Positions 25,617 to 43,417 of a DNA stretch of 52,806 bases are shown in pieces. Under the pieces are notes generated by a model. The model was not told the origin of the DNA. It searched no databases and saw only the letters and a program-made list of their open reading frames with translations. The stretch is from assembly GCA_032126655.1 (NCBI GenBank), contig JAQBAU010000012.1:1-52806 (forward strand). The letters are read 5' to 3'. Every line of letters starts with the position of its first letter. Within the stretch, counting starts at the first letter, position 1. Both the position numbers and the translations under genes were made by a program. This stretch comes from Desulfobacterales bacterium. Its GTDB lineage: Bacteria; Desulfobacterota; Desulfobacteria; Desulfobacterales; C00003060.

Positions 25617-25934
25617 ATGCCAGAAATCGAGTTTGAAGGTCAAACCTTTAGTGTAGACGAGGACGGTTTCATTGACGATTATAAAAACTGGTCTCAAGGA
25701 TGGGTCAAGTATGTGAAGTCGGTTGAGGGGATCGATGAACTGACCGATGAGCACCAGAAGTGCGTGACTTTCCTGCGGGAATACTATGAGAAGAATGGGA
25801 TTGCCCCTATGGTCAGGATCTTCTCGAAGGTTACCGGTTTCAAACTGAAGCACATCTACGAGTTGTTCCCGTCTGGACCAGGTAAAGGCGCATGCAAGAT
25901 GGCAGGTCTTCCCAAACCGACCGGATGCGTATAG
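25617..25934 (+). CDS. dsrC: DsrC (dissimilatory sulfite reductase gamma subunit / trisulfide carrier)
   Basis: TusE/DsrC fold with the flexible C-terminal arm carrying both conserved Cys: CKMAGLPKPTGCV-stop. Confidence 0.9.
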   Translation: MPEIEFEGQTFSVDEDGFIDDYKNWSQGWVKYVKSVEGIDELTDEHQKCVTFLREYYEKNGIAPMVRIFSKVTGFKLKHIYELFPSGPGKGACKMAGLPKPTGCV

Positions 25935-30040: not shown

Positions 30041-30073
30041 AAACAGAAAAGACGCCGCTAAGCGCGCGGCGCC
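30041..30073 (-). terminator. terminator-like hairpin after the Mrp/NifX-like gene
   Basis: Minus strand reads ggcgccgc-gcgctta-gcggcgtc followed by ttttctgttt. Confidence 0.5.
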
Positions 30074-30171
30074 TTTCTGTGCTGGTTGCAGAGGGATGGC
30101 AATAAACACTAGTTATGACATTCAGGAGGTTATCTATCTATCAGTTCGTTTTTGACCTTCGTTGCATTCCA

Positions 30172-31398
30172 TCAGTGGTCACAAACGTTCTCTCCAGTGA
30201 CCAGGGCGCTCGCAAGGTACTGCTGGACCAACTCCTCCGGGGTGAGGCTTGGGGCACCCGTGAGGACCTTGATGCCGTTTTCACCAAATAGTGCCTGGGC
30301 TTTTGAACCCATGCCCCCCGCAATAATAACGTCCACGCCAAGATCCCCGAGCCATTTCGGCAGTACCCCGGGTTCGTGGGGCGGCGGCGTCAGGAGTTCT
30401 TTGTCTTTTACTTCCTGATTTTCTACGTGAACGATGGCAAATTCCGCTGCATGACCGAAATGCGCTGTTAGCTTCCCTTCGGCAATAGGAATGGCAATCT
30501 TCATAGAACTTCCATCTTGTCCCTTGAGGTTCGATTTGGTCTCAGACACTTCTACCTGTTTACTTTCCACGATCTGTTCCACAATGTCGTTGAACACTTT
30601 TGTTGCTTCCGAATCTGGATTTTTCTCGACGTATGATTCTCCTGCATCGGAGCACTCCACCATTTTGGGATCGATGGGGATTCGACCCAAATACGGAACA
30701 TTCATGGCTATGGCTGTTTTAAACCCGCCCCCAGAGCCAAACAGATCTATCGATTGACTGCAATGGGGGCACACAAAACCGCTCATGTTTTCCACCAATC
30801 CAAAGATAGGCATATTGACAGTTCTGCAGAAGTTGATCGATTTTCTAATGTCAGCCAGGGAAATCTCCTGCGGTGTGGTCACGATAATGGCCTGGGCGCC
30901 AGGGATGGTTTGCGCTACGGAAAGTGGTTCGTCTCCCGTACCGGGTGGTGAATCGATAATCAGATAGTCGAGTTGTCCCCAGTGGACGTCTGAGATGAAC
31001 TGGCGGATGACATGCATTTTCATAGGCCCTCGCCAGATTATGGCGTCATCTGCATCTTGGGATAGAGATTCAATGGAGACCACACCCAAGTTCTCTGAAT
31101 AGCGCTTTGGGAGCAGATGTCGATCATCGTTGACGTCAAGTAACCCAGTCAGGCCGAGCATTCTCGGGACATCAGGGCCGTGCAGGTCTACATCCATGAG
31201 ACCCACCTTTGCTCCTTTTTTTGCCAGGGCCACGGCCAGATTCACGGAAACACTGGTTTTGCCGACGCCACCTTTGCCGCTCATGACTAGAAATTTTTTC
31301 TTGATCAGACCCAGAGATTCCTGGATCGCCTTATCTTGCGGGTCAACCTCCGCACCGTGCTGGCACGTACCTGATCCGCAGTGTTTTGTGTCACTCAT
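30172..31398 (-). CDS. Mrp/NBP35 (ApbC) Fe-S carrier ATPase fused to a C-terminal NifX/NifB-type (Nitro_FeMo-Co) domain
   Basis: Cys-rich N-terminus (HCGSGTCQHG), deviant Walker A SGKGGVGKTS, Mrp CxxC (FVCPHCSQSIDLFG). The C-terminal ~110 aa (MKIAIPIAEGKLTAHFGHAAEFAIV...VIIAGGMGSKAQALF) is NifX-like. Confidence 0.8.
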   Translation of the reverse strand: MSDTKHCGSGTCQHGAEVDPQDKAIQESLGLIKKKFLVMSGKGGVGKTSVSVNLAVALAKKGAKVGLMDVDLHGPDVPRMLGLTGLLDVNDDRHLLPKRYSENLGVVSIESLSQDADDAIIWRGPMKMHVIRQFISDVHWGQLDYLIIDSPPGTGDEPLSVAQTIPGAQAIIVTTPQEISLADIRKSINFCRTVNMPIFGLVENMSGFVCPHCSQSIDLFGSGGGFKTAIAMNVPYLGRIPIDPKMVECSDAGESYVEKNPDSEATKVFNDIVEQIVESKQVEVSETKSNLKGQDGSSMKIAIPIAEGKLTAHFGHAAEFAIVHVENQEVKDKELLTPPPHEPGVLPKWLGDLGVDVIIAGGMGSKAQALFGENGIKVLTGAPSLTPEELVQQYLASALVTGENVCDH

Positions 31399-31520
31399 AT
31401 GGAACCCTCCTTCATTGGTATTGTGTCAAAAGATTTATGCTTCATGTCACATGACAATAAGCACGAACAGATTGGGTTGCAAGTGCGGGGGGCCTGGCCT
31501 GTCCCTGTGGCAGACCCTTC

Positions 31521-31883
31521 TTACGCCCAATGACCCTCTACATTTGGCCCGTCCGTGGTTTCGAGTTGCCCGCTCCTATATTGCGTAACGGCATCTATCA
31601 CGCGCCCTTGGGCGCCTGTTACTACCTTGACGCCGGCAGCCTTCAGCACTTGAAATGCCTTTGGGCCGCAGTTGCCGGAGATCAACACATCTGCTTTCTG
31701 ATCCACGATGGTCTTTGCGGCCTGTATCCCTGCCCCTTGAGGCAGATTGAGGTTCTGTTCGTTTTCCACAACCCCATACTCGAGCGTCTCTGAGTCCACA
31801 ATAACGAAATACTTCGCTCTCCCAAAAAGGGGATCCATGTCTGAAATTAGTTCATTCCCAGTAGATGTGACGGCTATCCTCAT
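31521..31883 (-). CDS. NifX/NifB-family (Nitro_FeMo-Co domain) cluster-binding protein
   Basis: MRIAVTS...FGRAKYFVIVD...VLISGNCGPKAFQVLKAAGVKV. Confidence 0.75.
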   Translation of the reverse strand: MRIAVTSTGNELISDMDPLFGRAKYFVIVDSETLEYGVVENEQNLNLPQGAGIQAAKTIVDQKADVLISGNCGPKAFQVLKAAGVKVVTGAQGRVIDAVTQYRSGQLETTDGPNVEGHWA

Positions 31884-31899
31884 TGTTGGTCATGCCTCC

Positions 31900-32196
31900 T
31901 TATGGATGGAAACTAGCTTGTTTTAGAACCTCCATGAGTTCATCGGCCCTGTTGTACCCCGCGACCTTGACTTCGACTTCCTTGACGCCCCCTGTTTCTT
32001 GAACGGCCCTCTGAATATCATAAGCGAACTTAAAGGCCATGGGGCAGACCGGAGAAGACGGATGAAATGTCAAGCAAACCCTACCATCTAGGTCCACGAC
32101 CAGGTCTCTGACCAATTTCATGCGCATGATGTCAAGATTGGTGCCGGGGTCGATGACCCCCTTTAACGCATCTTCTATGTCTTGTTTGAGTGTCAT
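31900..32196 (-). CDS. DUF59 (SufT/MIP18/PaaD-like) metal-sulfur cluster assembly factor
   Basis: 98 aa. ALKGVIDPGTNLDIMRMKLVRDL...HPSSPVCPMA. Confidence 0.7.
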   Translation of the reverse strand: MTLKQDIEDALKGVIDPGTNLDIMRMKLVRDLVVDLDGRVCLTFHPSSPVCPMAFKFAYDIQRAVQETGGVKEVEVKVAGYNRADELMEVLKQASFHP

Positions 32197-33128
32197 CGGG
32201 GATTCTTAAGTTGATAATAGGCTACTGAGCCGTCGCTCACTATGGCAATTGATTGGTTTTTAACCAAGGGCTCGATGTATTTCAAAATTTCATTTCTATG
32301 TACTTTGAGTGCGGAAGAAATATCGTCCAATGTGCACGGGCGCCTTGCAAGGATGTTCAAGAGATCTTCCTCAATATCAGCGCCTCTCTCATATCTCTCA
32401 GTGTCCTTGAACGGGGTAATGACTTCGGCCTGTTCTCCTATGATGTTGCAGAACGTGTTCATCTCTTGCACAGGAACCCTCCGTGCATATGACTCAGCCG
32501 GAGGGCGAACGGCTGTATTAACGTGTACCTTTTGGGGGTTCACCTTTTCAATCCAGTGTTTGAACTGTGTTGCGTCAGTTGGGGTCGCATTAATGCCATC
32601 CAAAATGAAGACCTCGAGCCATATTTGTCCGGAGTATTCCTTGCGAAACTTGAACAAGCCCTCGAGTACCGACTCAAGCCTGATTTCAGGATGGGGGCGA
32701 TTGATGGTTTGAAACCCTTCTTCATCATGCGCATCAAGGGAGGGAAGTACTGCATCGGCCTCCATTAGTGATTCCCGCACCTGCCTGCTTCCCAAAAGGG
32801 AGCCATTTGTCAAGACAGCCACCGGAATCTGAGTAAGTTCCTTGATTTCGTGAATCAATGGTCCGATTTCAGTGTTCAATGTGGGCTCCCCTGAGCCCGC
32901 CAGAGTGATGTAGTCTACGTCGACACCTTCTTCGAGCTTCTCACGTACTTGAACAAGGATCTCTTCAGCAGGTATGTATGGCTTTCGCTCGATGGTTCTC
33001 TGTTTGGTTCGTCCGAGTTGACAATAGATGCAGTCGTATGAACACACCTTAAGCGGTACCAAGTCAACCCCGAGAGAGCGACCCAATCTTCGTGAGGGCA
33101 CGGGCCCGTATACCAAACGCTGTTTCAC
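32193..33128 (-). CDS. radical SAM protein (COG0731-like)
   Basis: YGPVPSRRLGRSLGVDLVPLKVCSYDCIYCQLG carries the CxxxCxxC triad. GSGEPTL is the SAM glycine motif. 4-nt overlaps on both sides. Confidence 0.8.
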   Translation of the reverse strand: MKQRLVYGPVPSRRLGRSLGVDLVPLKVCSYDCIYCQLGRTKQRTIERKPYIPAEEILVQVREKLEEGVDVDYITLAGSGEPTLNTEIGPLIHEIKELTQIPVAVLTNGSLLGSRQVRESLMEADAVLPSLDAHDEEGFQTINRPHPEIRLESVLEGLFKFRKEYSGQIWLEVFILDGINATPTDATQFKHWIEKVNPQKVHVNTAVRPPAESYARRVPVQEMNTFCNIIGEQAEVITPFKDTERYERGADIEEDLLNILARRPCTLDDISSALKVHRNEILKYIEPLVKNQSIAIVSDGSVAYYQLKNPR

Positions 33129-33994
33129 GATCGATCCTTCATGTAGTGCTCGACCCTATTCCATATCCCTTCTATGGCTTTGGAGACGTCCCCGTCTGCG
33201 AACTCCACAATGCTTTTACCAGCCACCATGGCATGAGTCACTGCCGTATCATAGGGGATACGGCCCACCATCTCAATTTGGTTTTGGGCACAGTAATCTG
33301 CAATCTGATTCGATATGTCCTCGTTCAAATCGAATTTATTGACACAGACAAGTGTTGGTATCTTAAAGTGGTCAGCCAATCCTCCAACCCGCTTGAGGTC
33401 GTGCAAGCCTGACAAAGTGGGTTCGGTCACGATGAGAACTGCACTGGTTCCGGTTATGGAGGCAATGACGGGACACCCGATTCCTGGGGGGCCGTCCACA
33501 ACGATCGTCTCAAATCCTCGCTCTTCAGCCAACACCTTCGCCTGGTTTCTCACCAAACTGACCAACAATCCAGAGTTTTCTTCGGCAATGCCCAACTTGG
33601 CATGGACCATGGGGCCACACCGGGTTTCCGAGATGTACCATTTGCCACATATATTCTGGGTAAAATCAATGGCATCGACCGGGCAGAAATGGACACACAC
33701 GCCACACCCTTCACAGTCTATTTTGTTGACCACAAAGTCCGGCCCGATTGCCTTGAACTGGCAGAAATCCAGGCATTCCCCACATTCGATGCACCTTTCG
33801 GGGTCTACCTGGGCGGTTCTTCCCCCCCTAAAATCCTCTTCATGCTGTATTTCAGGAGCGAGTATCAAATGGAGATCGGCCGCATCTACATCCGCATCAG
33901 CTAGAACCTTGTTTTCGGCAAGAGCCGCAAAAGAGGCTACAACACTGGTCTTCCCGGTGCCCCCCTTCCCACTTATGATCGTCAGTTCTCTCAT
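33125..33994 (-). CDS. MinD/ParA-type P-loop ATPase with inserted 2x[4Fe-4S] ferredoxin motifs
   Basis: SGKGGTGKTS, CIECGECLDFC and CEGCGVCVHFCP. ATG 33994 follows gaagg. Confidence 0.8.
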   Translation of the reverse strand: MRELTIISGKGGTGKTSVVASFAALAENKVLADADVDAADLHLILAPEIQHEEDFRGGRTAQVDPERCIECGECLDFCQFKAIGPDFVVNKIDCEGCGVCVHFCPVDAIDFTQNICGKWYISETRCGPMVHAKLGIAEENSGLLVSLVRNQAKVLAEERGFETIVVDGPPGIGCPVIASITGTSAVLIVTEPTLSGLHDLKRVGGLADHFKIPTLVCVNKFDLNEDISNQIADYCAQNQIEMVGRIPYDTAVTHAMVAGKSIVEFADGDVSKAIEGIWNRVEHYMKDRS

Positions 33995-34019
33995 GCACAA
34001 AACCTTCAGTTATTTCCCG

Positions 34020-34853
34020 TTAGGACAATTCTTTTATCTTTTCATACATTTTCCGGAAACGATTCCTCATCTCGGGTACGACGTCTACCATCATGATGCC
34101 GCGGGAATATGCCTCTGCGATCTTTCGGTCATTTGGGATCTCCATCAGGATCGGTATCCCTTCTTCTGCGGCATATGCGGTGACCCGATCGTCTCCTACA
34201 TCACAGCGGTTCACGATGATCCCAAGGGGAATTCCCAGGATACGCACAGCCCCAACCGCAAGCTTCAAGTCGTGCAGCCCGAAGGGCGTGGGCTCGGTAA
34301 CCAGAATCACGAAATCTGCACCTTTCAACGCTACAATGACCGGGCAGGATGTCCCGGGTGGAGCATCAATGATGGCAATCTTACCCGGATCGATATGCTC
34401 CTTAACCCGCTCAATGAGGGGCGGAGACATTGCCTCGCCAATCCGCAACAAGCCATGAAAAAACTCTACCAAGCCGGATGTGCCTGTTTCCAATTCGCCA
34501 AGCGCCCGGCCCTTCTCGCTTATCGCTTCTTTGGGACAGACCATCATACACCCCTTGCAGCTGTGACAGAGCTCCGGGAAGGTCAGAACTTTTTTCCCGA
34601 TGACAGTGATGGCGCTGAACTGACAGATCTCTCCGCACTCTCCGCAAAAATCGCACTTATCGAAATCGACTTCAGGGACTGGCGTAGTCACCACCTCGGT
34701 GTGGTCAATCTTAGGCTTCATGAAGAGGTGGGCATTGGGTTCTTCCACATCGCAGTCCAGCAGCTGAACATTCCCGTTCAGCGACACGGCCAGATTGGTC
34801 GCAATCGTGGTTTTGCCCGTACCCCCTTTTCCGCTGGCAATACAAATGATCAT
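34020..34853 (-). CDS. MinD/ParA-type P-loop ATPase with inserted 2x[4Fe-4S] ferredoxin motifs (paralogue)
   Basis: SGKGGTGKTT, CDFCGECGEICQF and CHSCKGCMMVCP. Confidence 0.8.
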   Translation of the reverse strand: MIICIASGKGGTGKTTIATNLAVSLNGNVQLLDCDVEEPNAHLFMKPKIDHTEVVTTPVPEVDFDKCDFCGECGEICQFSAITVIGKKVLTFPELCHSCKGCMMVCPKEAISEKGRALGELETGTSGLVEFFHGLLRIGEAMSPPLIERVKEHIDPGKIAIIDAPPGTSCPVIVALKGADFVILVTEPTPFGLHDLKLAVGAVRILGIPLGIIVNRCDVGDDRVTAYAAEEGIPILMEIPNDRKIAEAYSRGIMMVDVVPEMRNRFRKMYEKIKELS

Positions 34854-34936
34854 CGGTCCACCTCGGTATGACTACAGCTTACTGACATCGTAGCCATTGA
34901 CTTTCAACCAGTCCTCCCTGCTGGCACTCTCAGCAA

Positions 34937-35025
34937 CTGGAGTAATGGAGTACTGGAGTGATGGAAAGACAAAGCAAATGCCGTTTCAAACTCGATCTCT
35001 CTTCCCAATACTCCAACACTCCATG
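34937..35025. repeat. imperfect palindrome built from 8-nt periodic units (copy 1)
   Basis: Left arm ctggagtaatggagtactggagtgatgg. Right arm cccaatactccaacactccatg. Both arms recur in inverted orientation at 44225-44320. Confidence 0.8.
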
Positions 35026-35033
35026 CCTTTCTT

Positions 35034-35234
35034 CTATTCCCGCGTCATTGCTTCTTGACATTTGGGGCATTTTTCCTCAAAGCACGGTTGTCCCTTCTTG
35101 TGCGGTACACGTTCACCGCACTTCGGACAAACGCAGTCTCCACCTGGACCCCTGCCAGGCCTGCCGCCCTGTCCCGTGCCCCTTCCCGTGCCAGAGCCTT
35201 GGCCTGTGGGACCTGTTTTATCTCCTTGTGGCAT
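35034..35234 (-). CDS. DUF5320-like Gly-rich small protein with C-terminal CxxC...CxxC zinc ribbon
   Basis: [24 protein letters not shown]...[30 protein letters not shown] 35234 is the likely start; the listed ORF extends to 35273. Confidence 0.55.
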
Positions 35235-35273
35235 TGTAATCTCCTTCGTTAACGTTAGAAATTGGAAACTCAC

Positions 35274-35927
35274 TCACGGATTTTCATTTTCGAGCTCTTT
35301 GATCCGCCGTTCGATTGCTTGCATCTCCTCACGCAACGTCCGGGCGTCCTGCTTAAGACCGGCAAGTTCATCTTTCCCTGTCATTTTTCCCAAAGATGTC
35401 ATAGCAGTTGGAGCAGACAGGGCGCGTCCCATACCTCGGCCCATACCCATGCCCCGACCACCCCCTTTGCCGCAACCGCCTCCCATGCCCATGCCGCGAC
35501 CCATACCGGGTCCTGCATTCGGTGTTTGCTGAGCACGCGGTCTCCGGGACTGGTTGGCATCGGCCTGCAGACCCGGGGCGATCTGGGCGTTGGGTTGATC
35601 GTTTTGCTGTAGTTCTCCGTCCTTGTATTGTTGGGCCTTCTCGCGGACAGTTCCGGATATACCGGTGATGATATCCACACCCACTTCTGCAAGGACATCC
35701 TGTGCCTTGGGGCCAATGTTTCCTGTGAGCACGGCCTTGGCCCCTTGATCAACAACCAGCTTGGCTGACTGTATGCCCACACCACTCCCCTGAGCGAGGT
35801 TTGTATTGGGTATTGCCTCGAAGCTCATATCGTCCAAGTCTACGATCATAAAGTATTGACACCGCCCAAACCGCGGGTCGACTTCTGAGTCGAAACTCGG
35901 ACCGGTTGACGAAATGACTATCTTCAT
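35274..35927 (-). CDS. NifX/NifB-type domain fused to a DUF5320-like Gly/Met/Arg-rich and coiled-coil tail
   Basis: The N-terminus MKIVISS...FGRCQYFMIVD...VLTGNIGPKAQDVL is NifX-like. This is followed by GPGMGRGMGMGGGCGKGGGRGMGMGRGMGR and LREEMQAIERRIKELE. Confidence 0.7.
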   Translation of the reverse strand: MKIVISSTGPSFDSEVDPRFGRCQYFMIVDLDDMSFEAIPNTNLAQGSGVGIQSAKLVVDQGAKAVLTGNIGPKAQDVLAEVGVDIITGISGTVREKAQQYKDGELQQNDQPNAQIAPGLQADANQSRRPRAQQTPNAGPGMGRGMGMGGGCGKGGGRGMGMGRGMGRALSAPTAMTSLGKMTGKDELAGLKQDARTLREEMQAIERRIKELENENP

Positions 35928-35952
35928 AAACGAATTTCTCCTTCAGATTCCC

Positions 35953-36374
35953 CTATTGCTCAACTTCCTCGATGTTCTTGCCGGCATTGGGCTCAGGACT
36001 GGTGACAAAGATATCTGTAATCTTCACGATAACGGCTGACTTGGGTGCCAGATCAGGCTTTTCAGCCTTGACCATCTCAACAGCCATGTCGAAGATTTTG
36101 CCGGATGTATCAATTCTGGGAGTCCCTTTGAATTGATACCCCTTGCGGGGTTTTACATCCCAATCCCATACGGAAATAGCCAGGATCGGGTTCTGCTGAA
36201 TGTTTTCAAAAGTCTTCTTCATGAAGATATCGGCCAGCATGATCTCATCATCTGAAAGGATCTTGATGAAATGTATGGGAACCACGTTGGGGTACCATCC
36301 TTGGTGCTAGTGGCTATGGCATAGCCACTGGTTTTTTCCATGACATCCTTCATATCCTGTGTCAGTTTTGCCAT
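35953..36374 (-). pseudogene. pyridoxamine 5'-phosphate oxidase-family (flavin-binding split-barrel) gene interrupted by a -1 frameshift
   Basis: ATG 36374 (SD aaggaag) encodes MAKLTQDMKDVMEKTSGYAIATSTKDGTP. The downstream 110-aa ORF (35953-36285) continues as VVPIHFIKILSDDEIMLADIF in another frame. The junction is a 4-nt C run (complement of gggg 36289-36292). Confidence 0.65.
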
Positions 36375-36457
36375 TTTGTGCTTCCTTTCTTCCTGTGTTG
36401 CGGCGGGGGAAAACCCTCCGTCATCCTTGTGTCACCGGCATCTTGACCGCAAAGCAT

Positions 36458-36883
36458 TTACCCTTTTTCCCTCACGCGTTGGAATGCTTTCCAGCCACAT
36501 GAAGGGCACTTCTTGGGTCGACCTGTGCCACGTGGTTCTTCCCATCGAAAATCGCACTTATCGCACTGAAAGACCCGATCCGCGGTGTTGTCTACCCTTT
36601 CGTAATTCCCGCCCCCTACATTTATGGCTTTTCCGTGGATCAATGCATCTGCTACAGTCTTTCTTGCCTGTTCAACAATACGCCCGAATGTAGCCCGGGA
36701 CACGCCCATCTGCTTTCCGGCATCCTCATGGGACTTTCCCAAAAAGTCAGCCAGCCTCAATGCTTCCAGTTCATCCACGGTCAACTGGACCTGTTCCAAA
36801 TTGATCATGGGGACGCCCCGGGGTTTGAAATAGCTGATCTCCGGGTCGATCTTCACCAAACGGCTTTTCTGGGGGCGTGCCAT
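36458..36883 (-). CDS. DUF134 (UPF0251) putative DNA-binding regulator with C-terminal zinc ribbon
   Basis: MARPQKSRLV...YFKPRGVP...LTVDELEALRLADFLGKSHEDAGKQMGVSRATFGRIVEQARKTVA, then CDKC...CPSCG. Confidence 0.75.
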   Translation of the reverse strand: MARPQKSRLVKIDPEISYFKPRGVPMINLEQVQLTVDELEALRLADFLGKSHEDAGKQMGVSRATFGRIVEQARKTVADALIHGKAINVGGGNYERVDNTADRVFQCDKCDFRWEEPRGTGRPKKCPSCGWKAFQRVREKG

Positions 36884-37008
36884 GGTGCCTCCTTTATAAG
36901 CATATGCTTAAAACTCAATTTAGGTACTCGACTTGAGGTTGTCAAGTCATTTCTGTGAGGATTTTTTCGATTTCTGTGCGTATGCCTAATGGTGGGGTCC
37001 TGGTGCGG

Positions 37009-38739
37009 TCACTTGAGAACCTTCAGGTAGTGGGCGAATTGTCGAAGGCTCAGGCTGGAGAACTCATCGAATTCTGCAAACATCTCGAGGCCGGGCACGA
37101 TTGCCTTAACGACCGGGATGTCGAGATCCTCCCGCGTCAGGTTCACATAAATCGGTTGGTACCCGTTCGTGATCAGCAGCCTTTCCAAGAGCCGCAAATC
37201 ATGACTTGCGTTGCCCGACGAGTAGTCTGAAAGGGTGTCTTCCTTCATCCTTTTTACGCCGGGAAGTGCTGGGACAGGACGGAACCACGAAGGGTGGAAT
37301 GGCAGTTCCAACAATGCAGAGACAGCAGCCCTTTTTCCATCCAGATGGGCCGCACATCCTTTCAGGATTTCGCCCCCAGGGCCCTGGGCAAATGCCTTGT
37401 AGCAGGGAACGCCCAATTCGGTGGTAATGTCCAGGAACTGGACCTGGAGGCCCTCTTGGGCTGAACGCTGCAAAATGTCTTCAACCTCGGGGAGATCCGA
37501 CTCGAGTAGGAAACACCTCTCCTCACAATAGGGCATAACCCGTTCCGCGTCCCTTTCTATGACCTCAAGCAAGGCATGGAGCTTGGCTTCCTCCATGGTG
37601 TTTCCTGAAGCCAGGCCGGTGGATGGCGGACCGCTTGTGAGACTGATTTCATCCAGATTACAGAAGAGGAAGACCAGTTGAGCCGGCACATGGGTCAAAT
37701 GTGTCCCCTGCTCATCAACCCTTTGAGCAGGCACCCAATAAAGAGGTTGGTTTTCATAAGGTACCTCAAGGTTCATATCATTGGGGTTCAATACCTCATG
37801 AGCGTTCTCTCTCAGATCTTCATAACAGGCTTGGATCAAACGCAGACCATCTTTGTAATGAAGCGCAGCCTGGGAATCAATGCTCGCAAATGATGAAACT
37901 CTTTCAACGACTTCCATGAAACATGAGGCTCTCGCCTGGTCTGTGCCAAGCCCCTTGCCATAGCTGGTCTGGACTCCTGTCAGTTCCCAATGGTTTCTCC
38001 CCACTGAGGTGCGAACATGCAGAAGCCATTGCATTTGAAGGGCGCAAGGACTGAGGCTGGCCTGGTTCTCCGTTTCCGGTCCAAGCTTGAAGTCGATGGC
38101 CTTGAGTCTTTCCATCGCCTTTGCCTGGGTTGCTGCAGGGCTGAGTTGGTTAGCCGTATGTTCGGATGTTGTGTCCCTTTCAGGACGGTCCAGCAACGCA
38201 CTGATCGGTATGACCCGACTCATCAACGCGTCCATAGCTTTCTGATCAAACGGGATCGGAAACGCTGTTCCGTTGTCACGCCTTGCAGGCTTGTGCCGCA
38301 GGATATTGTCTGAAAAAAGCCCAAGCCAGTGAGCCTTCTCGTCCATTTCTTCTTGCAGCGACCAGTTAATGAAGATCAACGGCGTATACTGCGCTAGGGT
38401 TTTGGCATCCACGTCGTCGAATTTGCTTCTCAGTGGAAGAAATCTGTCATTGAGAACACACACTTCATACATTATCGCTGCAAGGTGCGCGCTTTCGTCC
38501 TTCCCTCTTTGAATCAATTCGCGTGTGAGGTTCGGCCCGAATTGTCCTGCCAGGTGAAGGAGGTACTTGTGCATGAAATCGTCGTTAGGATGCTCCTGGA
38601 CATAGATAAGGGCATCTTCAAAATCGAAATGCTCCACCGGAAAACAGGCAAATTGCCCCGTTCCATGCTGTGTGACTTGGTGTTCAAGCTCATAACCAAT
38701 GAAGGAATGAGCTGTCGGCCGTTCGTCAGAATGATTCAT
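37009..38739 (-). CDS. YcaO-domain protein with ~200-aa unassigned N-terminal extension
   Basis: YcaO signatures SYGKGLGTDQARASCFMEVVERVS and LASGNTMEEAKLHALLEVIERDA. C-terminal region ends ...VKAIVPGLE. Confidence 0.8.
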   Translation of the reverse strand: MNHSDERPTAHSFIGYELEHQVTQHGTGQFACFPVEHFDFEDALIYVQEHPNDDFMHKYLLHLAGQFGPNLTRELIQRGKDESAHLAAIMYEVCVLNDRFLPLRSKFDDVDAKTLAQYTPLIFINWSLQEEMDEKAHWLGLFSDNILRHKPARRDNGTAFPIPFDQKAMDALMSRVIPISALLDRPERDTTSEHTANQLSPAATQAKAMERLKAIDFKLGPETENQASLSPCALQMQWLLHVRTSVGRNHWELTGVQTSYGKGLGTDQARASCFMEVVERVSSFASIDSQAALHYKDGLRLIQACYEDLRENAHEVLNPNDMNLEVPYENQPLYWVPAQRVDEQGTHLTHVPAQLVFLFCNLDEISLTSGPPSTGLASGNTMEEAKLHALLEVIERDAERVMPYCEERCFLLESDLPEVEDILQRSAQEGLQVQFLDITTELGVPCYKAFAQGPGGEILKGCAAHLDGKRAAVSALLELPFHPSWFRPVPALPGVKRMKEDTLSDYSSGNASHDLRLLERLLITNGYQPIYVNLTREDLDIPVVKAIVPGLEMFAEFDEFSSLSLRQFAHYLKVLK

Positions 38740-38760
38740 ACAGTCTCCAGGTGATGGGTG

Positions 38761-38914
38761 CTAGCTTGAGTTTCCAATCCAGAAATGAGGAATTTTCCGT
38801 AAGGTCAAGGAAATCAAGGGATTGCGCGGAGGCGTACATTTGGTACGTCGCACAAGCGATCCCGCAGATTGAAGCCGAGATTGCGGAAAATGGCCATTTG
38901 TGGATGGAAACTAG
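38761..38914. repeat. ~150-nt nested-palindrome element in the divergent YcaO/YkgJ spacer
   Basis: Pairs found: ctag..gtttcca.tcc / ggatggaaactag; attttccg / cggaaaat; gggat.gc / gcgatccc. The core ggaggcgtacatttggtacgtcgcac resembles the 29305-29449 core. Confidence 0.55.
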
Positions 38915-39074
38915 TTTGATTGCGGATAAACTAAACAGGTGCCCTTGTCAACAGGGGCCTTTACACAGATGATTCTTCCGACGACGAGCAGCCGAAACGC
39001 ATCCGGACGAATGGTCGTTGACAGTTATAATTGCGGTCTGTTATCAAGGTGCCCAAGCTACCACTCAGTGAGGC

Positions 39075-39725
39075 ATGATCATGTTAGATTTTTCAAAGAC
39101 GTTTGCCCGGTATGAAGCTCTGGTTGCCGAAGTGGACAAGATCTTCAGTGCCATGCAAAACGCCCATGAAGACTGCGTTCGGTGCGAGATCCATTGCAGT
39201 GACTGCTGTTATGCGGTTTTTGATGTCACACTTATTGAATCGGCCTACATCAATTATCATTTCAACAGGTCCTTGAACAGAAAGGAACGTCGACCGATTG
39301 TCATGCGGGCTGAAAAGGCTGATCGGGAGTATTATAAGATAAAACGTAAGCTTCAGAAGATGTACATACAACAAGGGAAGCCTCCGGAGGAGGTGTTCTC
39401 GTACCTGGCTGAGGAAAGGGTCGCGTGTCCACTCCTGAATGACGAGAAGGTGTGTGATCTGTATGCCAGGCGGCCAATTACCTGCAGAGTGTATGGGATA
39501 CCCACGTCGATTGGTGGAACCCCCCATATCTGCAAAGAATCTGGTTTCAAGGAAGGGACAGCCTATCCGACGGTCAACCTCGACAACGTGAATGACCGTC
39601 TCATTCAGTTGTCTAAAGAGCTGCTTGAAGAGGTCGGGTCGGACCGATTGAAGATGCAGATGAGTCTTGTGCCGGTTTCAGCAACTCTGATGACGACCTA
39701 TGACGCGGAGTACTTCAAGATTTGA
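39075..39725 (+). CDS. YkgJ/UPF0153-family cysteine-cluster protein (second paralogue)
   Basis: CVRCEIHCSDCC motif and downstream CPLL...CDLYARRPITCRVY. Confidence 0.7.
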   Translation: MIMLDFSKTFARYEALVAEVDKIFSAMQNAHEDCVRCEIHCSDCCYAVFDVTLIESAYINYHFNRSLNRKERRPIVMRAEKADREYYKIKRKLQKMYIQQGKPPEEVFSYLAEERVACPLLNDEKVCDLYARRPITCRVYGIPTSIGGTPHICKESGFKEGTAYPTVNLDNVNDRLIQLSKELLEEVGSDRLKMQMSLVPVSATLMTTYDAEYFKI

Positions 39726-39744
39726 GGGTGGAGGGCATTTCTAG

Positions 39745-40092
39745 ATGGTTCAGCGAACGCCTGAAGATGAAGAGAGAAAGAAAAGCATTTTTGACAGCAT
39801 GTCGCCTCGACGGCAGAAGCATATTTTGGACAAGACCGGCTACGATAAATGGGACCCCTTCATTGAACCAAAGGAGCCGATCGATTTGCGCGCGGACAAA
39901 ACAAAGCGCACAGCCAGGGACTTAGCCAGGCAATTTCTTCAAGACTGTGAAAGTGAGGACTACAGCAATGCTTTCGGCCAGGGGGTCTGGGACATGTGTC
40001 TTGGAATCGTTAATGATGACGACCGCTACAAAGGGATGTATGAATTCTCATGCTGGTATCGGGAACTTCTGAAAGAAGAGGGCACGAAGTAA
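39745..40092 (+). CDS. hypothetical protein (115 aa, charged, no recognised family)
   Basis: ATG is preceded by gagggtggaggg and lies 19 nt after the YkgJ stop. Non-repetitive composition. Confidence 0.5.
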   Translation: MVQRTPEDEERKKSIFDSMSPRRQKHILDKTGYDKWDPFIEPKEPIDLRADKTKRTARDLARQFLQDCESEDYSNAFGQGVWDMCLGIVNDDDRYKGMYEFSCWYRELLKEEGTK

Positions 40093-40143
40093 CAAAGAAA
40101 TCGTTTTTGACACGACCAACTGTTTTCATTACTGAAATCCGAT

Positions 40144-40167
40144 GGCGCCTCTGGCGCTTTATTTTTT
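40144..40167 (+). terminator. weak terminator-like hairpin
   Basis: gcgcc-tct-ggcgc followed by tttatttttt. The stem is only 5 bp. Confidence 0.35.
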
Positions 40168-40181
40168 GTGTGTAAGGACTC

Positions 40182-42500
40182 ATGTCTGATCATTTCCTTT
40201 TTATCCATGTAAACCAGTCAGCCCCGGTGGAGTCCCCGGACACCATCCCCATCTCAGAGGCCACTATCCTGGCCCATTTGAAGAACCACGGCTTCTCCGG
40301 CCAGATCCTGGGCGATTTGGCGAACAGCCCTCTTAAACCCCGGGATTTGGCAAAGGTCATTCACAAAGATCAACCACTTGCCGTTGGGTTCACGGCATAT
40401 CAGCAAAACATTGAGCAGATAAGGCTTTGGGCCAAGTTTACCAAGAAGGTATCGCCCGATTCCAAGGTTATCCTCGGGGGACCCCAGGTGACGTTCATGC
40501 CGGCCGAGGCTCTCAGGCATATGCCAGAGGTCGATTTCCTGTGCAGGGGGGAAGGGGAGGAAGTGATGCTGGGCCTCGCCCAGGCCCTGAGCAATGGGGC
40601 AGAGATCTCCCGTGTTCCTGGCCTCTGTTTTTTGCAGGAGGATGAAGCGGTAGAGACGGGTCCGGCGCTTGGCGCGAAAGATCTGGATGAATACGCCTCT
40701 CCCTATCTGACGGACCTGATCGATTTGAGGTACAAGGCACGGGCAGTGATGCTGACTTCCCGGGGATGTTCATACGATTGTGCGTTTTGTTACACACCAA
40801 AGGCGAGTGGACGAAGAGTTCGGCTTCACTCCATCGAGCGAATCGTGGAGGAGATGAGATACCTCAAATCGAGGGGAATGCCCGCTTTTTGGTTTGCAGA
40901 CCCGAATTTTTCTCTTTCTCGAAAGCGCCTGGTTACCCTCCTCGAGGCGATCCTCAGGGAGGTGCCCGGGGTTACCTTCTGGTGTCAGACACGCTACGAT
41001 CTAGTAGATGAAGAACTGGTTTCTTTGCTCAGGCGGGCTGGCGCTGATAATGTGGCTTTCGGACTTGAGTCGGCAAACCCCGAAGTGCTTGACCGAATCA
41101 ACAAACCCATTGACCTGGTACGCCTTTCAGAGGTGATCCGTATGACCCAGGAGGCAGGTATCAACGTGGAACTCTTCAGCATGTTTGCGCTTCCGGGGGA
41201 GACGTTTGACCAGGCTGCTGCTACCCTTGAGTTCGTGAAGGAAAACAGAGTGGCCATAGAGAGCAACTCTATATCGCAGCAGGCCCACCTTTTCTTTGGC
41301 ACCCCTATGAATGACGATCCTGCAGCTTACGGGATCCGACCTCTTCCCCGCACGCGGCCAGCGTATCTGAGCGTGTGCCGGGACTACGAAACGGATACCA
41401 TGTCGGTGGATGATATCCACCGTATGAGTTTGATCTGGCGTCTCAACCGAAACGATTTTGCCGAGGACGTGCTCACCGGGAAGAACCTGTTCCACAGAGC
41501 AGCTTTTATTACCGAGAATCGCGACGTTCTAAAAAACCGACCTGAGGCCGCATATCTGCTGGCCCGCATATATCTTGCCCTTGAGGAGTATAGTGCCGCA
41601 ATAAACTCCATGCGTCTGCTGAGCAAGGAGTTTTCAGAAGATCCCGGAGCGCAGGAACTGCTTCGGGGTCCCTTCTTGTGTTTCAATGTGAGTCACGAGA
41701 AAGCCCGTCCCGGGTTCAAGGTAATTTACGACTGTCAGGGCTCTGTGGAAGGCAGGCTCGTGTTGGCAACATGCGGCAGGTTTCAGGAAGCAGTACTTGG
41801 CGAGGGCACGCTATTGCCTGAATTCGAGGTGCACCTTCAGGAAATGAGTCCTGGGGAAGACATCCGGTTTGACATGACCTTTCCGGACAATTACGGACGC
41901 ACTGCACTGGCAGGGAAAGCTATCACGTTTCGGATTCATCTGCACCACACCATGGAGCCAGTGGCCGTGGAAGGTTATGAGGACCTCGATAACGAGGCAC
42001 CGCGCAATGGCTACCAGATAGAGGACTTGGCAGCGTTGCGCCAACATAACATCAACCTCTATTATAGAGTGCTTCGCACAACCAACATGAGTGGACAGAA
42101 GACAGACATGGCTGATGCCCTCATGCTCGTGAACCTTTATCTTAAGCTGGGGTTCATGGACCTGGCCAGAGATGTCGCCGAGACGCTCCGAGACAACGCC
42201 GTGGTTTATACCCACGCGGCGCACATATTTCGCCAAAACGGCCAGCCCCAGGAGGCTTTAAAGCTTCTGGATGAGGGGGGGCAAGACGGACAGATGGAAC
42301 AGATGATCCGAGCTGAAGCACTTTTCGAAATAAACAGGTTGGAGGAATCAGAGGAACTCATGAAAGAGATGGGGTTGCCCCACAATGTCACGCTTGCAGA
42401 CCTTCGGGTGAAGCTGGCTGCAAGCTTGGCCCTCCCCATTGAAACATACCTTGAAAGGGAAGAAGACCTGCTTGATGCAAGAACCCAGGCCATGCTGTAA
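40182..42500 (+). CDS. B12-binding-domain radical SAM enzyme fused to a trigger-factor-type FKBP PPIase-like domain and a TPR-like C-terminus
   Basis: B12-binding N-terminus (VILGGPQVTF...FLCRGEGEEVM). rSAM triad LTSRGCSYDCAFCYTP. Residues ~500-590 (LGEGTLLPEFEVHLQEMSPGEDIRFDMTFPDNYGRTALAGKAITFRIHLHH) resemble the trigger factor PPIase domain. The tail is helical and repeat-like. Confidence 0.75.
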   Translation: MSDHFLFIHVNQSAPVESPDTIPISEATILAHLKNHGFSGQILGDLANSPLKPRDLAKVIHKDQPLAVGFTAYQQNIEQIRLWAKFTKKVSPDSKVILGGPQVTFMPAEALRHMPEVDFLCRGEGEEVMLGLAQALSNGAEISRVPGLCFLQEDEAVETGPALGAKDLDEYASPYLTDLIDLRYKARAVMLTSRGCSYDCAFCYTPKASGRRVRLHSIERIVEEMRYLKSRGMPAFWFADPNFSLSRKRLVTLLEAILREVPGVTFWCQTRYDLVDEELVSLLRRAGADNVAFGLESANPEVLDRINKPIDLVRLSEVIRMTQEAGINVELFSMFALPGETFDQAAATLEFVKENRVAIESNSISQQAHLFFGTPMNDDPAAYGIRPLPRTRPAYLSVCRDYETDTMSVDDIHRMSLIWRLNRNDFAEDVLTGKNLFHRAAFITENRDVLKNRPEAAYLLARIYLALEEYSAAINSMRLLSKEFSEDPGAQELLRGPFLCFNVSHEKARPGFKVIYDCQGSVEGRLVLATCGRFQEAVLGEGTLLPEFEVHLQEMSPGEDIRFDMTFPDNYGRTALAGKAITFRIHLHHTMEPVAVEGYEDLDNEAPRNGYQIEDLAALRQHNINLYYRVLRTTNMSGQKTDMADALMLVNLYLKLGFMDLARDVAETLRDNAVVYTHAAHIFRQNGQPQEALKLLDEGGQDGQMEQMIRAEALFEINRLEESEELMKEMGLPHNVTLADLRVKLAASLALPIETYLEREEDLLDARTQAML

Positions 42501-42604
42501 AGCCCTACAGCTTACCCTCCGGTTGGTGAGAGCTCTTTGACTGGGACAGGTGGCAATCTTTCGGATTCTCTGTATGTTGGAAACACGGCGAACGTCTCTG
42601 AGTC

Positions 42605-43417
42605 ATGAATCAAGCATTAAGAGATATCATATACAACACAGTCATTGAGGCCAGTGAAAAGATGACCCCCGGCGAAGTTGGAAAGGCAGTTGCCGTGGCC
42701 ACCGGCTTTGACAGGGAAGACATCAAACTCGCCATCAGGGATCTTGTTAGCCAGGGAGAACTCAGCTACACATATCTCTATGGCACGAGCTATTTAGAAA
42801 GGTCCTTTGACAGACCGATTCGGGTTTCTACAAGGATTGTGATCAAACCTCCTGACAAGGTGTACAGGCCCCAGACCGGTGAGGTCGTGATCGACATCGC
42901 AACAGGGGCTGCGTTTGGAAGTGGAGCCCATCCGAGCACTGCTCTGGCCTTAAGAGCATTGGACGCTGCCTTGCCCGAGCCTCACCGCGTGTTGCAAAGG
43001 ACCCCTTTTAAGGGGCTTGACGTGGGTACGGGCTCAGGCATTCTGGCCATTGCCATGACCAAGCTCGGCGTCCAGGAAGTGGTCGCTGTTGACATCGACC
43101 CGAGTGCCATATTCGAGGCCACTCATAACATCCGGTTGAACGACCTTGTCGCGCAGGTAACCGTTTCAGATTCTTCTCTGGAGGAATTGACGACCCATTT
43201 TCAAATGATTGTTGCCAATTTGGCTCATCCCACATTGAAGAAGTTTGGACTTCTTTTTTCAAACAGAATGGAAAAAGATGGGCTACTAGTCCTGTCCGGT
43301 TTCAAGGAGGCGGCATTTGAACCCCTTTGTTCAGTCTATGCTGAAAACGGGTTCATGTTGATCCGGCAAGAGAAAGAGGGCGAATGGATGGCGACGACAT
43401 TTCGCAAGAGCGCGTGA
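42605..43417 (+). CDS. PrmA-like class I SAM-dependent methyltransferase
   Basis: VIDIATGAAFGSGAHPSTALALRAL and LDVGTGSGILAIAMTKLG...VAVDIDPSA follow the PrmA pattern. The N-terminal domain is atypical. Confidence 0.7.
   Translation: MNQALRDIIYNTVIEASEKMTPGEVGKAVAVATGFDREDIKLAIRDLVSQGELSYTYLYGTSYLERSFDRPIRVSTRIVIKPPDKVYRPQTGEVVIDIATGAAFGSGAHPSTALALRALDAALPEPHRVLQRTPFKGLDVGTGSGILAIAMTKLGVQEVVAVDIDPSAIFEATHNIRLNDLVAQVTVSDSSLEELTTHFQMIVANLAHPTLKKFGLLFSNRMEKDGLLVLSGFKEAAFEPLCSVYAENGFMLIRQEKEGEWMATTFRKSA

Follow-up and report, generated by a model that had tools for sequence, protein, structure and literature searches.

The Desulfobacterales version of the ORP complex operon, enlarged by a radical SAM enzyme and headed by a DUF134 gene

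The orange protein (ORP) carries one of the few molybdenum clusters in biology that are neither pterin-based nor of the nitrogenase type, and the ORP complex of Desulfovibrio vulgaris was reportedly described in 2011 by Fievet et al. Here we consider a stretch of 52,806 nucleotides from a Desulfobacterales bacterium (assembly GCA_032126655.1, contig JAQBAU010000012.1; the window, for short), whose closest relatives in a genome scan are uncultured Desulfobacterales. An array of genes on its minus strand is the Desulfobacterales version of the ORP complex operon, enlarged by a radical S-adenosylmethionine (SAM) enzyme and with its own small, predicted regulator.

The ORP complex and its counterpart in the window

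In D. vulgaris Hildenborough the orp genes form two divergent operons, orp5-orp4-orp3 and orp7-orp8-orp9, whose expression depends on sigma-54, IHF and the redox-sensing activator OrpR (PMC6345978, PMC8359166, PMC3897727). Orp3 and Orp4 are similar to each other, carry two [4Fe-4S] ferredoxin motifs each and end in a helix that has been likened to that of MinD; Orp5 is homologous to a small [2Fe-2S] protein, and the orange protein and MrpORP go by the names Orp8 and Orp9, respectively (PMC6345978, PMC8359166, PMC3897727). In vitro, the Mrp/NBP35 domain of the Desulfovibrio MrpORP passes an Fe-S cluster to apo-aconitase and to a preparation of Orp3, Orp4 and Orp8 (PMC6345978). According to the literature this cluster is held by a CXXC motif and is read as a [4Fe-4S] cluster bridging two monomers, the NifX-like domain of the same protein holds a poorly transferable [3Fe-4S] cluster, and ORP is able to bind a Mo-Cu-S cluster without covalent links. 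For the complex, a part in cell division, namely in positioning the septum, has been proposed in the literature, and a 2019 review still called the function of the orange protein unknown (PMC6650914).

The ten genes from DUF134 to MrpORP (30172-36883) can be assigned to an orp operon with high confidence, because MrpORP passes its equivalog model, the D. gigas ORP is the best solved relative of the orange protein gene product and two paralogous MinD-type ATPases with ferredoxin inserts accompany them. The MrpORP (Orp9) gene (30172..31398, minus strand, like all genes of the array) encodes a P-loop Fe-S carrier of the Mrp/NBP35 type with a NifX-like domain attached. Its product scores 546 bits against the NCBIfam MrpORP equivalog NF041136 (cut-off 450), matches Pfam Mrp/NUBPL, and shows the deviant Walker A motif GKGGVGKT at residue 41, CPHC at residue 210 and the Nitro_FeMo-Co domain at residues 307-395. 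Next to it lies the orthologue of the orange protein (ORP/Orp8; 31521..31883), 120 amino acids (aa) long and consisting of a single NifX-like domain, with the D. gigas ORP (2WFB) as its top match in the PDB (E 9e-22, 46% identity over 114 residues).

The two MinD/ParA-class ATPases complete this core. Paralogue a (34020..34853), similar to Orp3 and Orp4, has a 2x[4Fe-4S] ferredoxin insert, with a Walker A motif GKGGTGKT at residue 8, CX2CX2CX3C motifs at residues 67 and 96 and Pfam matches to CbiA, ParA and Fer4; paralogue b (33125..34000) has a 2x[4Fe-4S] insert as well, and the two are 32% identical over their full length. Together they are 43-54% identical to the pair that adjoins the ORP gene in Desulfovibrio sp. 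X2 (locus L087) and in a metagenome locus (L088), both of which were reached via close homologues of the D. gigas ORP; for paralogue a the identity to these ATPases is 43-48% over the full length. The GKGGxGKT motif is intact in all three ATPases (Mrp and the two of MinD type), and a repeat search of the window returned P-loop paralogy among these three and nothing more.

Like the Desulfovibrio system, the array combines MrpORP, an ORP orthologue and a pair of MinD-type ATPases, each with two [4Fe-4S] motifs, in a lineage of anaerobic sulfate reducers; its small Cys-rich protein is the probable counterpart of Orp5. It differs in being one co-directional operon, whereas D. vulgaris has two divergent ones, and in having a sigma-70-type promoter, a palindrome and DUF134 where D. 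vulgaris uses sigma-54 promoters, the PAS-[4Fe-4S] activator OrpR and IHF. Beyond the D. vulgaris set it also encodes a radical SAM–winged-helix enzyme, a DUF59 protein, a HupZ-like split barrel and a third NifX-like domain, joined to DUF5320.

An earlier note on this DNA, written from the sequence alone, had singled out eleven co-directional minus-strand genes, with YcaO as the eleventh, and knew of no described function for the set. Its anatomy was reproduced: all eleven open reading frames (ORFs) lie where it had placed them, the 4-nt overlaps at 32193-32196 and 33125-33128 agree with the ORF ends, and Pfam returned the three Nitro_FeMo-Co domains (free at 31521-31883, fused to Mrp at 30172-31398 and to DUF5320 at 35274-35927), the two MinD/CbiA ATPases, whose two CX2CX2CX3C motifs apiece were borne out by a motif check, and the DUF59, Radical_SAM, DUF134 and YcaO domains. 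The supposed lack of precedent did not hold, as the core is the published orp cluster that specifies the ORP complex of Desulfovibrio.

Gene content and conservation of the operon

The remaining genes differ in how closely they follow this core. The DUF59 (FeS_assembly_P) protein (31900..32196; 98 aa; Pfam 56.5 bits) contains a SPVCP cysteine motif and scores 40.6 bits against the SUF-associated equivalog, for which the cut-off is 143. Its gene is translationally coupled to the radical SAM gene and is found throughout the close clade defined below, and sporadically elsewhere (L028, L050). Upstream of the ATPases, a small gene (35034..35234) encodes a protein with a DUF5320-type N-terminus and a Cys6-His module. 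Its 79-aa ORF is better read as 66 aa, starting with MPQGDKTGP, as in the gene call on the window-matching contig JAQBBF010000262.1 (metagenome-assembled genome GCA_032126455.1). Throughout the alignment of the family a Gly-rich N-terminus, MPxGDxTGP, is followed by CxCx2C-x5-H-x5-C-x4-C-x2-C, in which all six Cys and the one His are invariant. Only about the first 25 positions of DUF5320 are covered, and eight of the 15 family members touch the DUF5320 N-terminus, below the Pfam threshold. The gene is present in many orp clusters and, in L035, is fused to a NifX-like domain; from gene order and from published descriptions (PMC6345978, PMC10533852), rather than an alignment, it is probably an Fe-S protein of the Orp5/Dde_3197 type. 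In the closest relative (L007 497-706), whose fully covered proteins show 91-97% identity, the small gene lacks the final three cysteines (...GERVPHTGIEQKPGELEG...), through a deletion, a frameshift or an assembly error.

Further upstream, the third NifX-like (Nitro_FeMo-Co) domain is followed by a Gly-rich DUF5320 coiled-coil tail (35274..35927; 217 aa; Pfam 80 and 32.8 bits), and the protein matches MTH1175 and the D. gigas ORP in the PDB. The next gene upstream (35953..36374) is a variable, accessory one of the HupZ/PNPOx-like split-barrel type. The earlier note had called it a flavin-type, PNPOx-like gene; the weak PNPOx_N match (35953-36285) was recovered, and the gene proved to be longer, frameshifted and variable among close relatives. 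One nucleotide is missing from a C-run near 36288-36292, as judged from a 139-aa orthologue in L005 and an uninterrupted frame in L012, which both read through the site (...KDGTPNVVPIHF...); the ATG start lies at 36374, with the first 29 codons out of frame with the 110-aa ORF. Either an assembly error or a real mutation would account for this. Once repaired, the protein has HupZ (heme-binding split-barrel) entries as its top PDB matches (E 3.5e-8). Among close relatives, L005, L012, L162 and L167 have the gene, and L003, L010 and L091 lack it. A hairpin at 36306-36332, considered as a terminator after DUF134, was rejected, as it lies inside the N-terminal coding part of this gene. Both the DUF59 and the HupZ-like genes are accessory, a point that is likewise new with respect to the accessible literature.

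To place the array among its relatives we used a genome scan seeded with orange-protein orthologues, the best 80 loci of which each show 51% identity or more to the window ORP, which excludes Desulfovibrio; these loci, together with loci reached through MrpORP homologues, were searched by tblastn with the window proteins. A search that started from the D. gigas ORP extended to Desulfovibrio sp. X2, not to strain Hildenborough. Gene order is conserved well beyond this genome: about 15 related contigs show the same order and dozens of contigs at a greater distance have the core, and for this reason the arrangement is not due to chance. The full order DUF134-(HupZ-like-NifX/DUF5320)-small protein-ATPase-ATPase-radical SAM-DUF59-ORP-MrpORP recurs in a close clade whose ORP is at least 79% identical (L003, L005, L007, L008, L010-L015, L091, L162, L167). 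Flanks of at least 5 kb to either side are available for 39 ORP genome loci, 38 of them more distant; of the 39, 30 have both ATPases (counted within 8 kb of ORP) and 29 a second NifX-like protein; a Mrp domain is found in 16, and DUF134 and the small Cys6 gene in eight each. A triplet of DUF134, ORP and MrpORP is frequent (L004, L006, L017-L019 and others) and fits the published orp7-orp8-orp9 operon, in which Orp7 may be a DUF134 protein.

The orp cluster is also present in the Firmicute Pelotomaculum (L085, L086). In Desulfovibrio sp. X2, ORP, the two ATPases and a NifX-like gene stand beside PAS/sigma-54 activators, and L088 has the same gene core. A more distant orp cluster (L053 7918-15548) encodes, in this order, an OrpR-like PAS/sigma-54 activator, a weak NifX-like protein of 119 aa, ORP, the small Cys6 protein, MrpORP, both ATPases, a NifU_N scaffold and a full DUF5320 protein; it shows both regulatory styles, as well as an extra Fe-S scaffold, within the orp family.

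A further addition is the radical SAM enzyme (32193..33128; 311 aa), whose gene overlaps each neighbour by 4 nt and whose C-terminus is an ArsR/SmtB-like winged helix. The presence of such a gene inside an orp operon is new with respect to the accessible literature; no link between a radical SAM enzyme and the orange-protein system was found in the literature that could be searched. The protein has its CX3CX2C motif at residues 29-36. Across 61 family members, only C29, C33, C36 and C265 are invariant or kept in at least 90%, so that C265 is the sole conserved cysteine besides those of the SAM cluster, and the enzyme is therefore not NifB-like. In keeping with this, the NifB model is absent from its NCBIfam matches, the best of which (MoaA, a tungsten-enzyme maturase and viperin) reach 44-52 bits with no equivalog among them. 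As a single sequence the protein has no match in the PDB. A profile of the 61 sequences weakly resembles viperin-like enzymes, TYW1 and MoaA in its core, and ArsR/SmtB and MarR-type winged helices at residues ~215-311.

The family is large, with 1,156 sequence clusters at E <= 1e-30. A metagenome scan anchored on a distant member of the L017 type gave 80 loci, 48 of which have at least 3 kb of flanking sequence and are informative. An ATPase, ORP/NifX-like or small Cys6 gene lies within 5 kb of the radical SAM gene in 23 of these 48, only two of which come from the close clade. The genes are arranged in at least five ways: ATPase-ATPase-radical SAM-MrpORP, ATPase-radical SAM-ATPase, small protein-radical SAM-ATPase, NifX/DUF5320-radical SAM-Mrp and Mrp-NifX-radical SAM. 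The association even extends to fusion, as one protein (P0362) combines Nitro_FeMo-Co, radical SAM and winged-helix domains, and another (P0392) begins with a divergent NifX-like domain, which shares 39% identity with the N-domain of the NifX-Cys6 fusion in L035. Fusions thus join the NifX-like domain to Mrp, to DUF5320, to the Cys6 module and to the radical SAM enzyme. Where orp genes are missing, the neighbours are housekeeping genes (for instance for DAHP synthase or an ABC transporter), with no alternative set of partners. Some relatives (P0364, P0483, P0478) carry C-terminal class I methyltransferase domains or an HD domain, which hints at small-molecule chemistry outside orp clusters.

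The promoter, the palindrome and DUF134

At the head of the operon lies a sigma-70-type promoter, TTGACA-17 nt-TAAATT (36917..36945, minus strand), with 10 of 12 consensus matches. In the otherwise diverged spacer between YcaO and DUF134, three elements are conserved among close relatives, namely the CTTGACAA box, a -10-like box 17 nt downstream of it and, directly after that, the block GTTTTAAGCATATGCTTATAA; in all seven close-clade loci compared the CTTGACAA box is invariant and the -10-like box retained. The block includes a 14-bp palindrome, TAAGCATATGCTTA (36897..36910), a candidate operator between the -10 box and the ribosome-binding site. The window has a single match to TRAGYATATRCTYA, and for the 21-nt clade motif 0.02 chance matches are expected. 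About 16 distant ORP-MrpORP loci led by DUF134 were compared as well; most have the same layout of promoter and palindrome, with the variant TGAG[CT]ATAT[ATG]CTCA just before the ribosome-binding site. This conserved combination of a sigma-70-type promoter and a 14-bp palindrome before DUF134 is new with respect to the accessible literature.

The DUF134 protein itself (36458..36883; 141 aa) is a helix-turn-helix protein and candidate regulator, with matches to Pfam DUF134 (92.5 bits) and Sigma70_r4_2. It heads ORP and MrpORP in many loci, and a literature search showed its family to be essentially unstudied. The C-terminus carries a zinc-ribbon-like module, CX2C-x16-CX2C, which is present in all aligned DUF134 proteins that lead orp genes and absent from a short paralogue. 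Judging from these features, DUF134 would be an autoregulatory DNA-binding protein with TAAGCATATGCTTA as its predicted operator near the transcription start, and it may possibly be sensitive to metal or Fe-S. The short paralogue represents a second class of DUF134 proteins (~107 aa in L006, lacking the zinc ribbon), encoded near orp genes in L006 (8566-9100), L023, L028 and L036 and provided with palindromes of its own that resemble TGGTCAAATGACCA. Its gene is divergent from the orp-leading DUF134 gene in L006 and L028, and in L006 DUF5320 genes come after it.

Control by sigma-54, as in D. vulgaris, was considered and rejected. A search for a sigma-54 enhancer-binding protein among window ORFs of at least 385 aa found none. 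A scan of the window for TGGCAC-N5-TTGC gave 52 matches against 55 expected, which is the level of chance; no intergenic region of the array has a match in which the essential GG is intact, and the sole intergenic match (34974-34988) lacks it. OrpR-like genes are present in L053 and L087. The missing sigma-54/OrpR system is a regulatory difference, and the structural genes still fall within the orp family.

Two further signals were noted downstream. A candidate internal promoter, TTGCAA-17 nt-TATTGT (31454..31482, minus strand), precedes mrpORP; it is suggested by conservation in an otherwise diverged spacer, being kept in L007, L091, L162 and L167 and weaker in L003 and L008, and it lies below the threshold of the consensus scan. 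After mrpORP comes a terminator-like hairpin (30047..30077, minus strand) of 12 pairs, seven of them G-C, followed by a T-run.

Cluster handling, rival readings and neighbouring genes

Taken as a whole, an orp operon coupled to a working model of cluster handling is probably the best explanation of the array. Its mechanistic half, the handling of a cofactor, is held more tentatively, as a reading that is quite possible and still short of being favoured. In this model DUF134 would bind TAAGCATATGCTTA just downstream of the sigma-70-type promoter and control the operon, replacing the sigma-54/OrpR system of Desulfovibrio. MrpORP and DUF59 would load [4Fe-4S] clusters into both ATPases and into the radical SAM enzyme, and the ATPase pair would form an ATP-driven, low-potential switch of the NifH type. 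The target of that switch would be a metal-sulfur species to which the three NifX-like domains bind non-covalently, with the Cys6 protein as an additional cluster site, and the radical SAM–winged-helix enzyme would carry out a radical step on this carrier-bound ligand or on a partner protein.

Two described systems offer parallels. With NifB, NifX/NafY and NifH the array shares NifX-type carriers, a radical SAM enzyme and dimeric Fe-S ATPases of the SIMIBI class, and some relatives even fuse NifX-like and radical SAM domains. Unlike NifB, though, the radical SAM protein has no auxiliary-cluster ligands, its core is nearest to viperin-like enzymes, TYW1 and MoaA, and the NifX-like domain of the fusion is N-terminal; unlike NifH, the ATPases have ferredoxin inserts in place of a cluster that bridges the subunits, and nifHDK and nifEN were not found in the window. 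The second parallel is with Mrp/NBP35/ApbC carriers and their DUF59 partners (SufT; the eukaryotic CIA proteins Nbp35-Cfd1 and CIA2), which are matched here by a deviant Walker A motif, a CXXC motif and a DUF59 cysteine-motif protein in the same operon. MrpORP departs from these carriers in its extra NifX-like domain and its dedicated clients.

Several observations weigh against the orp assignment or its mechanistic extension. The equations of Orp5 with the small Cys6 protein and of Orp7 with DUF134 draw on descriptions and gene order, not on alignment, and Desulfovibrio sp. X2 has no detectable DUF134 beside its ORP gene. The radical SAM gene is found in only one of the 38 distant ORP-anchored genome loci, and 25 of the 48 informative radical SAM loci have no orp neighbour, for which reasons we regard it as a lineage-restricted accessory gene rather than part of the core; the absence of auxiliary-cluster cysteines from its product counts against a cluster fusion of the NifB kind. 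The array may also give rise to more than one transcript, considering the candidate internal promoter before mrpORP and a 180-bp gap between the small Cys6 gene and the first ATPase gene, which measures ~5 nt in most relatives. Finally, the published hypothesis for the complex is septum positioning and not cofactor assembly.

A bolder form of the model, speculative and rather unlikely, would make the ORP system, instead of a division device, a NifB-independent, radical-SAM-assisted route for building or handing over a labile metal-sulfur cofactor in strict anaerobes, with the NifX-like domain as a common docking module and DUF134 as a metal- or redox-responsive repressor. The docking role is suggested because the domain is found fused to such different partners (Mrp carrier, DUF5320, Cys6 module, radical SAM enzyme). 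If true, such a pathway would provide the first function for DUF134, for DUF5320 and for a radical SAM subfamily of roughly 1,100 sequence clusters.

The division hypothesis holds that the ORP complex positions the division machinery in the manner of MinD, that its Fe-S clusters are redox sensors and that MrpORP is a maturation factor only, with no cofactor made or trafficked. The window ATPases are indeed of the MinD/ParA class. They score no more than 37-76 bits against the MinD equivalogs TIGR01968 and TIGR01969, though, far below the cut-offs of 202-213, and no min or fts gene was found among the window ORFs scanned. The partners that recur with ORP (NifX-like carriers, an Fe-S carrier, DUF59, the NifU_N scaffold of L053 and the radical SAM enzyme) would be hard to explain by positioning, and we consider this reading improbable.

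Lower still stands the proposal of the earlier note, according to which the eleven genes, including YcaO and the flavin-type gene, form an undescribed, self-contained machine for a cluster or cofactor. All eleven are co-directional and closely spaced, their domain content is related to metalloclusters, and YcaO adjoins DUF134 in six further loci (L003, L005, L010, L012, L091, L162). These six all belong to the one close clade, however, which also shares unrelated divergent upstream genes (for a CxxCxxCC protein, a 115-aa protein and a B12-radical SAM protein). Moreover, full-length YcaO orthologues with 46-48% identity adjoin a histone-deacetylase-family or a Mur ligase gene in two other loci, with no orp gene within 9 kb, and a conserved promoter separates YcaO from DUF134. 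Because its orthologues occur in such unrelated, housekeeping contexts and because of that promoter, YcaO is probably a syntenic neighbour rather than a component of the operon. The flavin-type gene, for its part, is missing from some close relatives and frameshifted in the window, and the core is the published orp cluster (PMC6345978, PMC8359166). As an account of the whole array the proposal is thus decidedly doubtful, although a part of it stands: the unit is coherent, conserved, related to metalloclusters (witness the NifX fusions) and led by DUF134 with its promoter and palindrome.

The YcaO gene (37009-38739, minus strand) encodes 576 aa, with a match to the YcaO ATP-binding domain of solved enzymes at residues 255-479 and an unmatched N-terminal region of ~250 aa; the protein passes the generic TIGR00702 model only. 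It resembles the YcaO enzymes of azoline and thioamide formation (MJ1094, LynD/TruD) in this domain, and a scan of flanking genes detected neither a TfuA nor an E1-like partner. Within 37009-43417, YcaO faces a CxxCxxCC protein, a 115-aa protein and a 772-aa B12-binding radical SAM protein with TPR and FKBP/trigger-factor-like domains, after which comes PrmA. This divergent set is conserved in L003, L005, L010 and L091 and is not found around the distant YcaO orthologues (L089, L090); in L091 a second, shorter YcaO adjoins PrmA. Together, YcaO and the divergent genes may constitute a separate protein-modification set.

The least credible proposal, to which we give hardly any weight, has the radical SAM enzyme recognise the small Gly/Cys-rich protein through its winged helix and modify it, possibly together with YcaO, so that the operon would mature a modified protein and not a cofactor: the small gene does immediately precede the radical SAM gene in L111, L114 and L115 and lies shortly upstream of it in L107, a DUF5320-type small ORF overlaps the radical SAM gene in L108, and a C-terminal winged helix and, in the close clade, a nearby YcaO are at hand, but the six Cys and one His are invariant, as expected of metal ligands, and a homologue is reported to bind [2Fe-2S] (PMC6345978), while the radical SAM core is like that of small-molecule enzymes (viperin-like, TYW1, MoaA) and has neither SPASM nor auxiliary-cluster Cys, the winged helix matches DNA-binding metalloregulators and YcaO is not conserved with the orp system.

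Elsewhere in the window we noted some genes apart from the operon. The earlier note had reported no structural genes of nitrogenase, hydrogenase or carbon monoxide dehydrogenase, and none was found among the window ORFs scanned; the sole CdhD-like match is HgcA (1800-2846, minus strand; NF040863, 467 bits, cut-off 275), which with HgcB (1440-1787, minus strand; NF040864, 114 bits against 99) forms a mercury-methylation pair, and a gene for a MarR-type regulator (2952-3428) lies upstream of it. Two paralogues of the putative Zn/Fe-chelating CxxCxxCC family (PF03692; 28600-29301 and 39075-39725, both on the plus strand) stand on either side of the orp operon and are syntenic in close relatives. 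A single ORF of 576 aa (18620-20350, minus strand) joins IspH/LytB (TIGR00216, 282 bits) to a UbiA-family prenyltransferase domain, and a DsrC/TusE-family gene (25617-25934, plus strand; TIGR03342, 111 bits) sits amid housekeeping genes, with Usp, HSP20, an AsnC-type regulator and YjbQ among the neighbours called on the window-matching contig. An Rfam scan of the whole window returned one tRNA and nothing else.

For the orp family, then, the array and its relatives offer three handles. The first, on the function of ORP, is a radical SAM–winged-helix enzyme that is genetically tied to orp genes and sometimes fused to a carrier domain; the second, on DUF134, is a defined DNA site that can serve as the basis for a simple assay; and the third is the separation of the core from accessory genes and from those that are neighbours only. 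Between them, they make the role of the ORP complex more directly testable.

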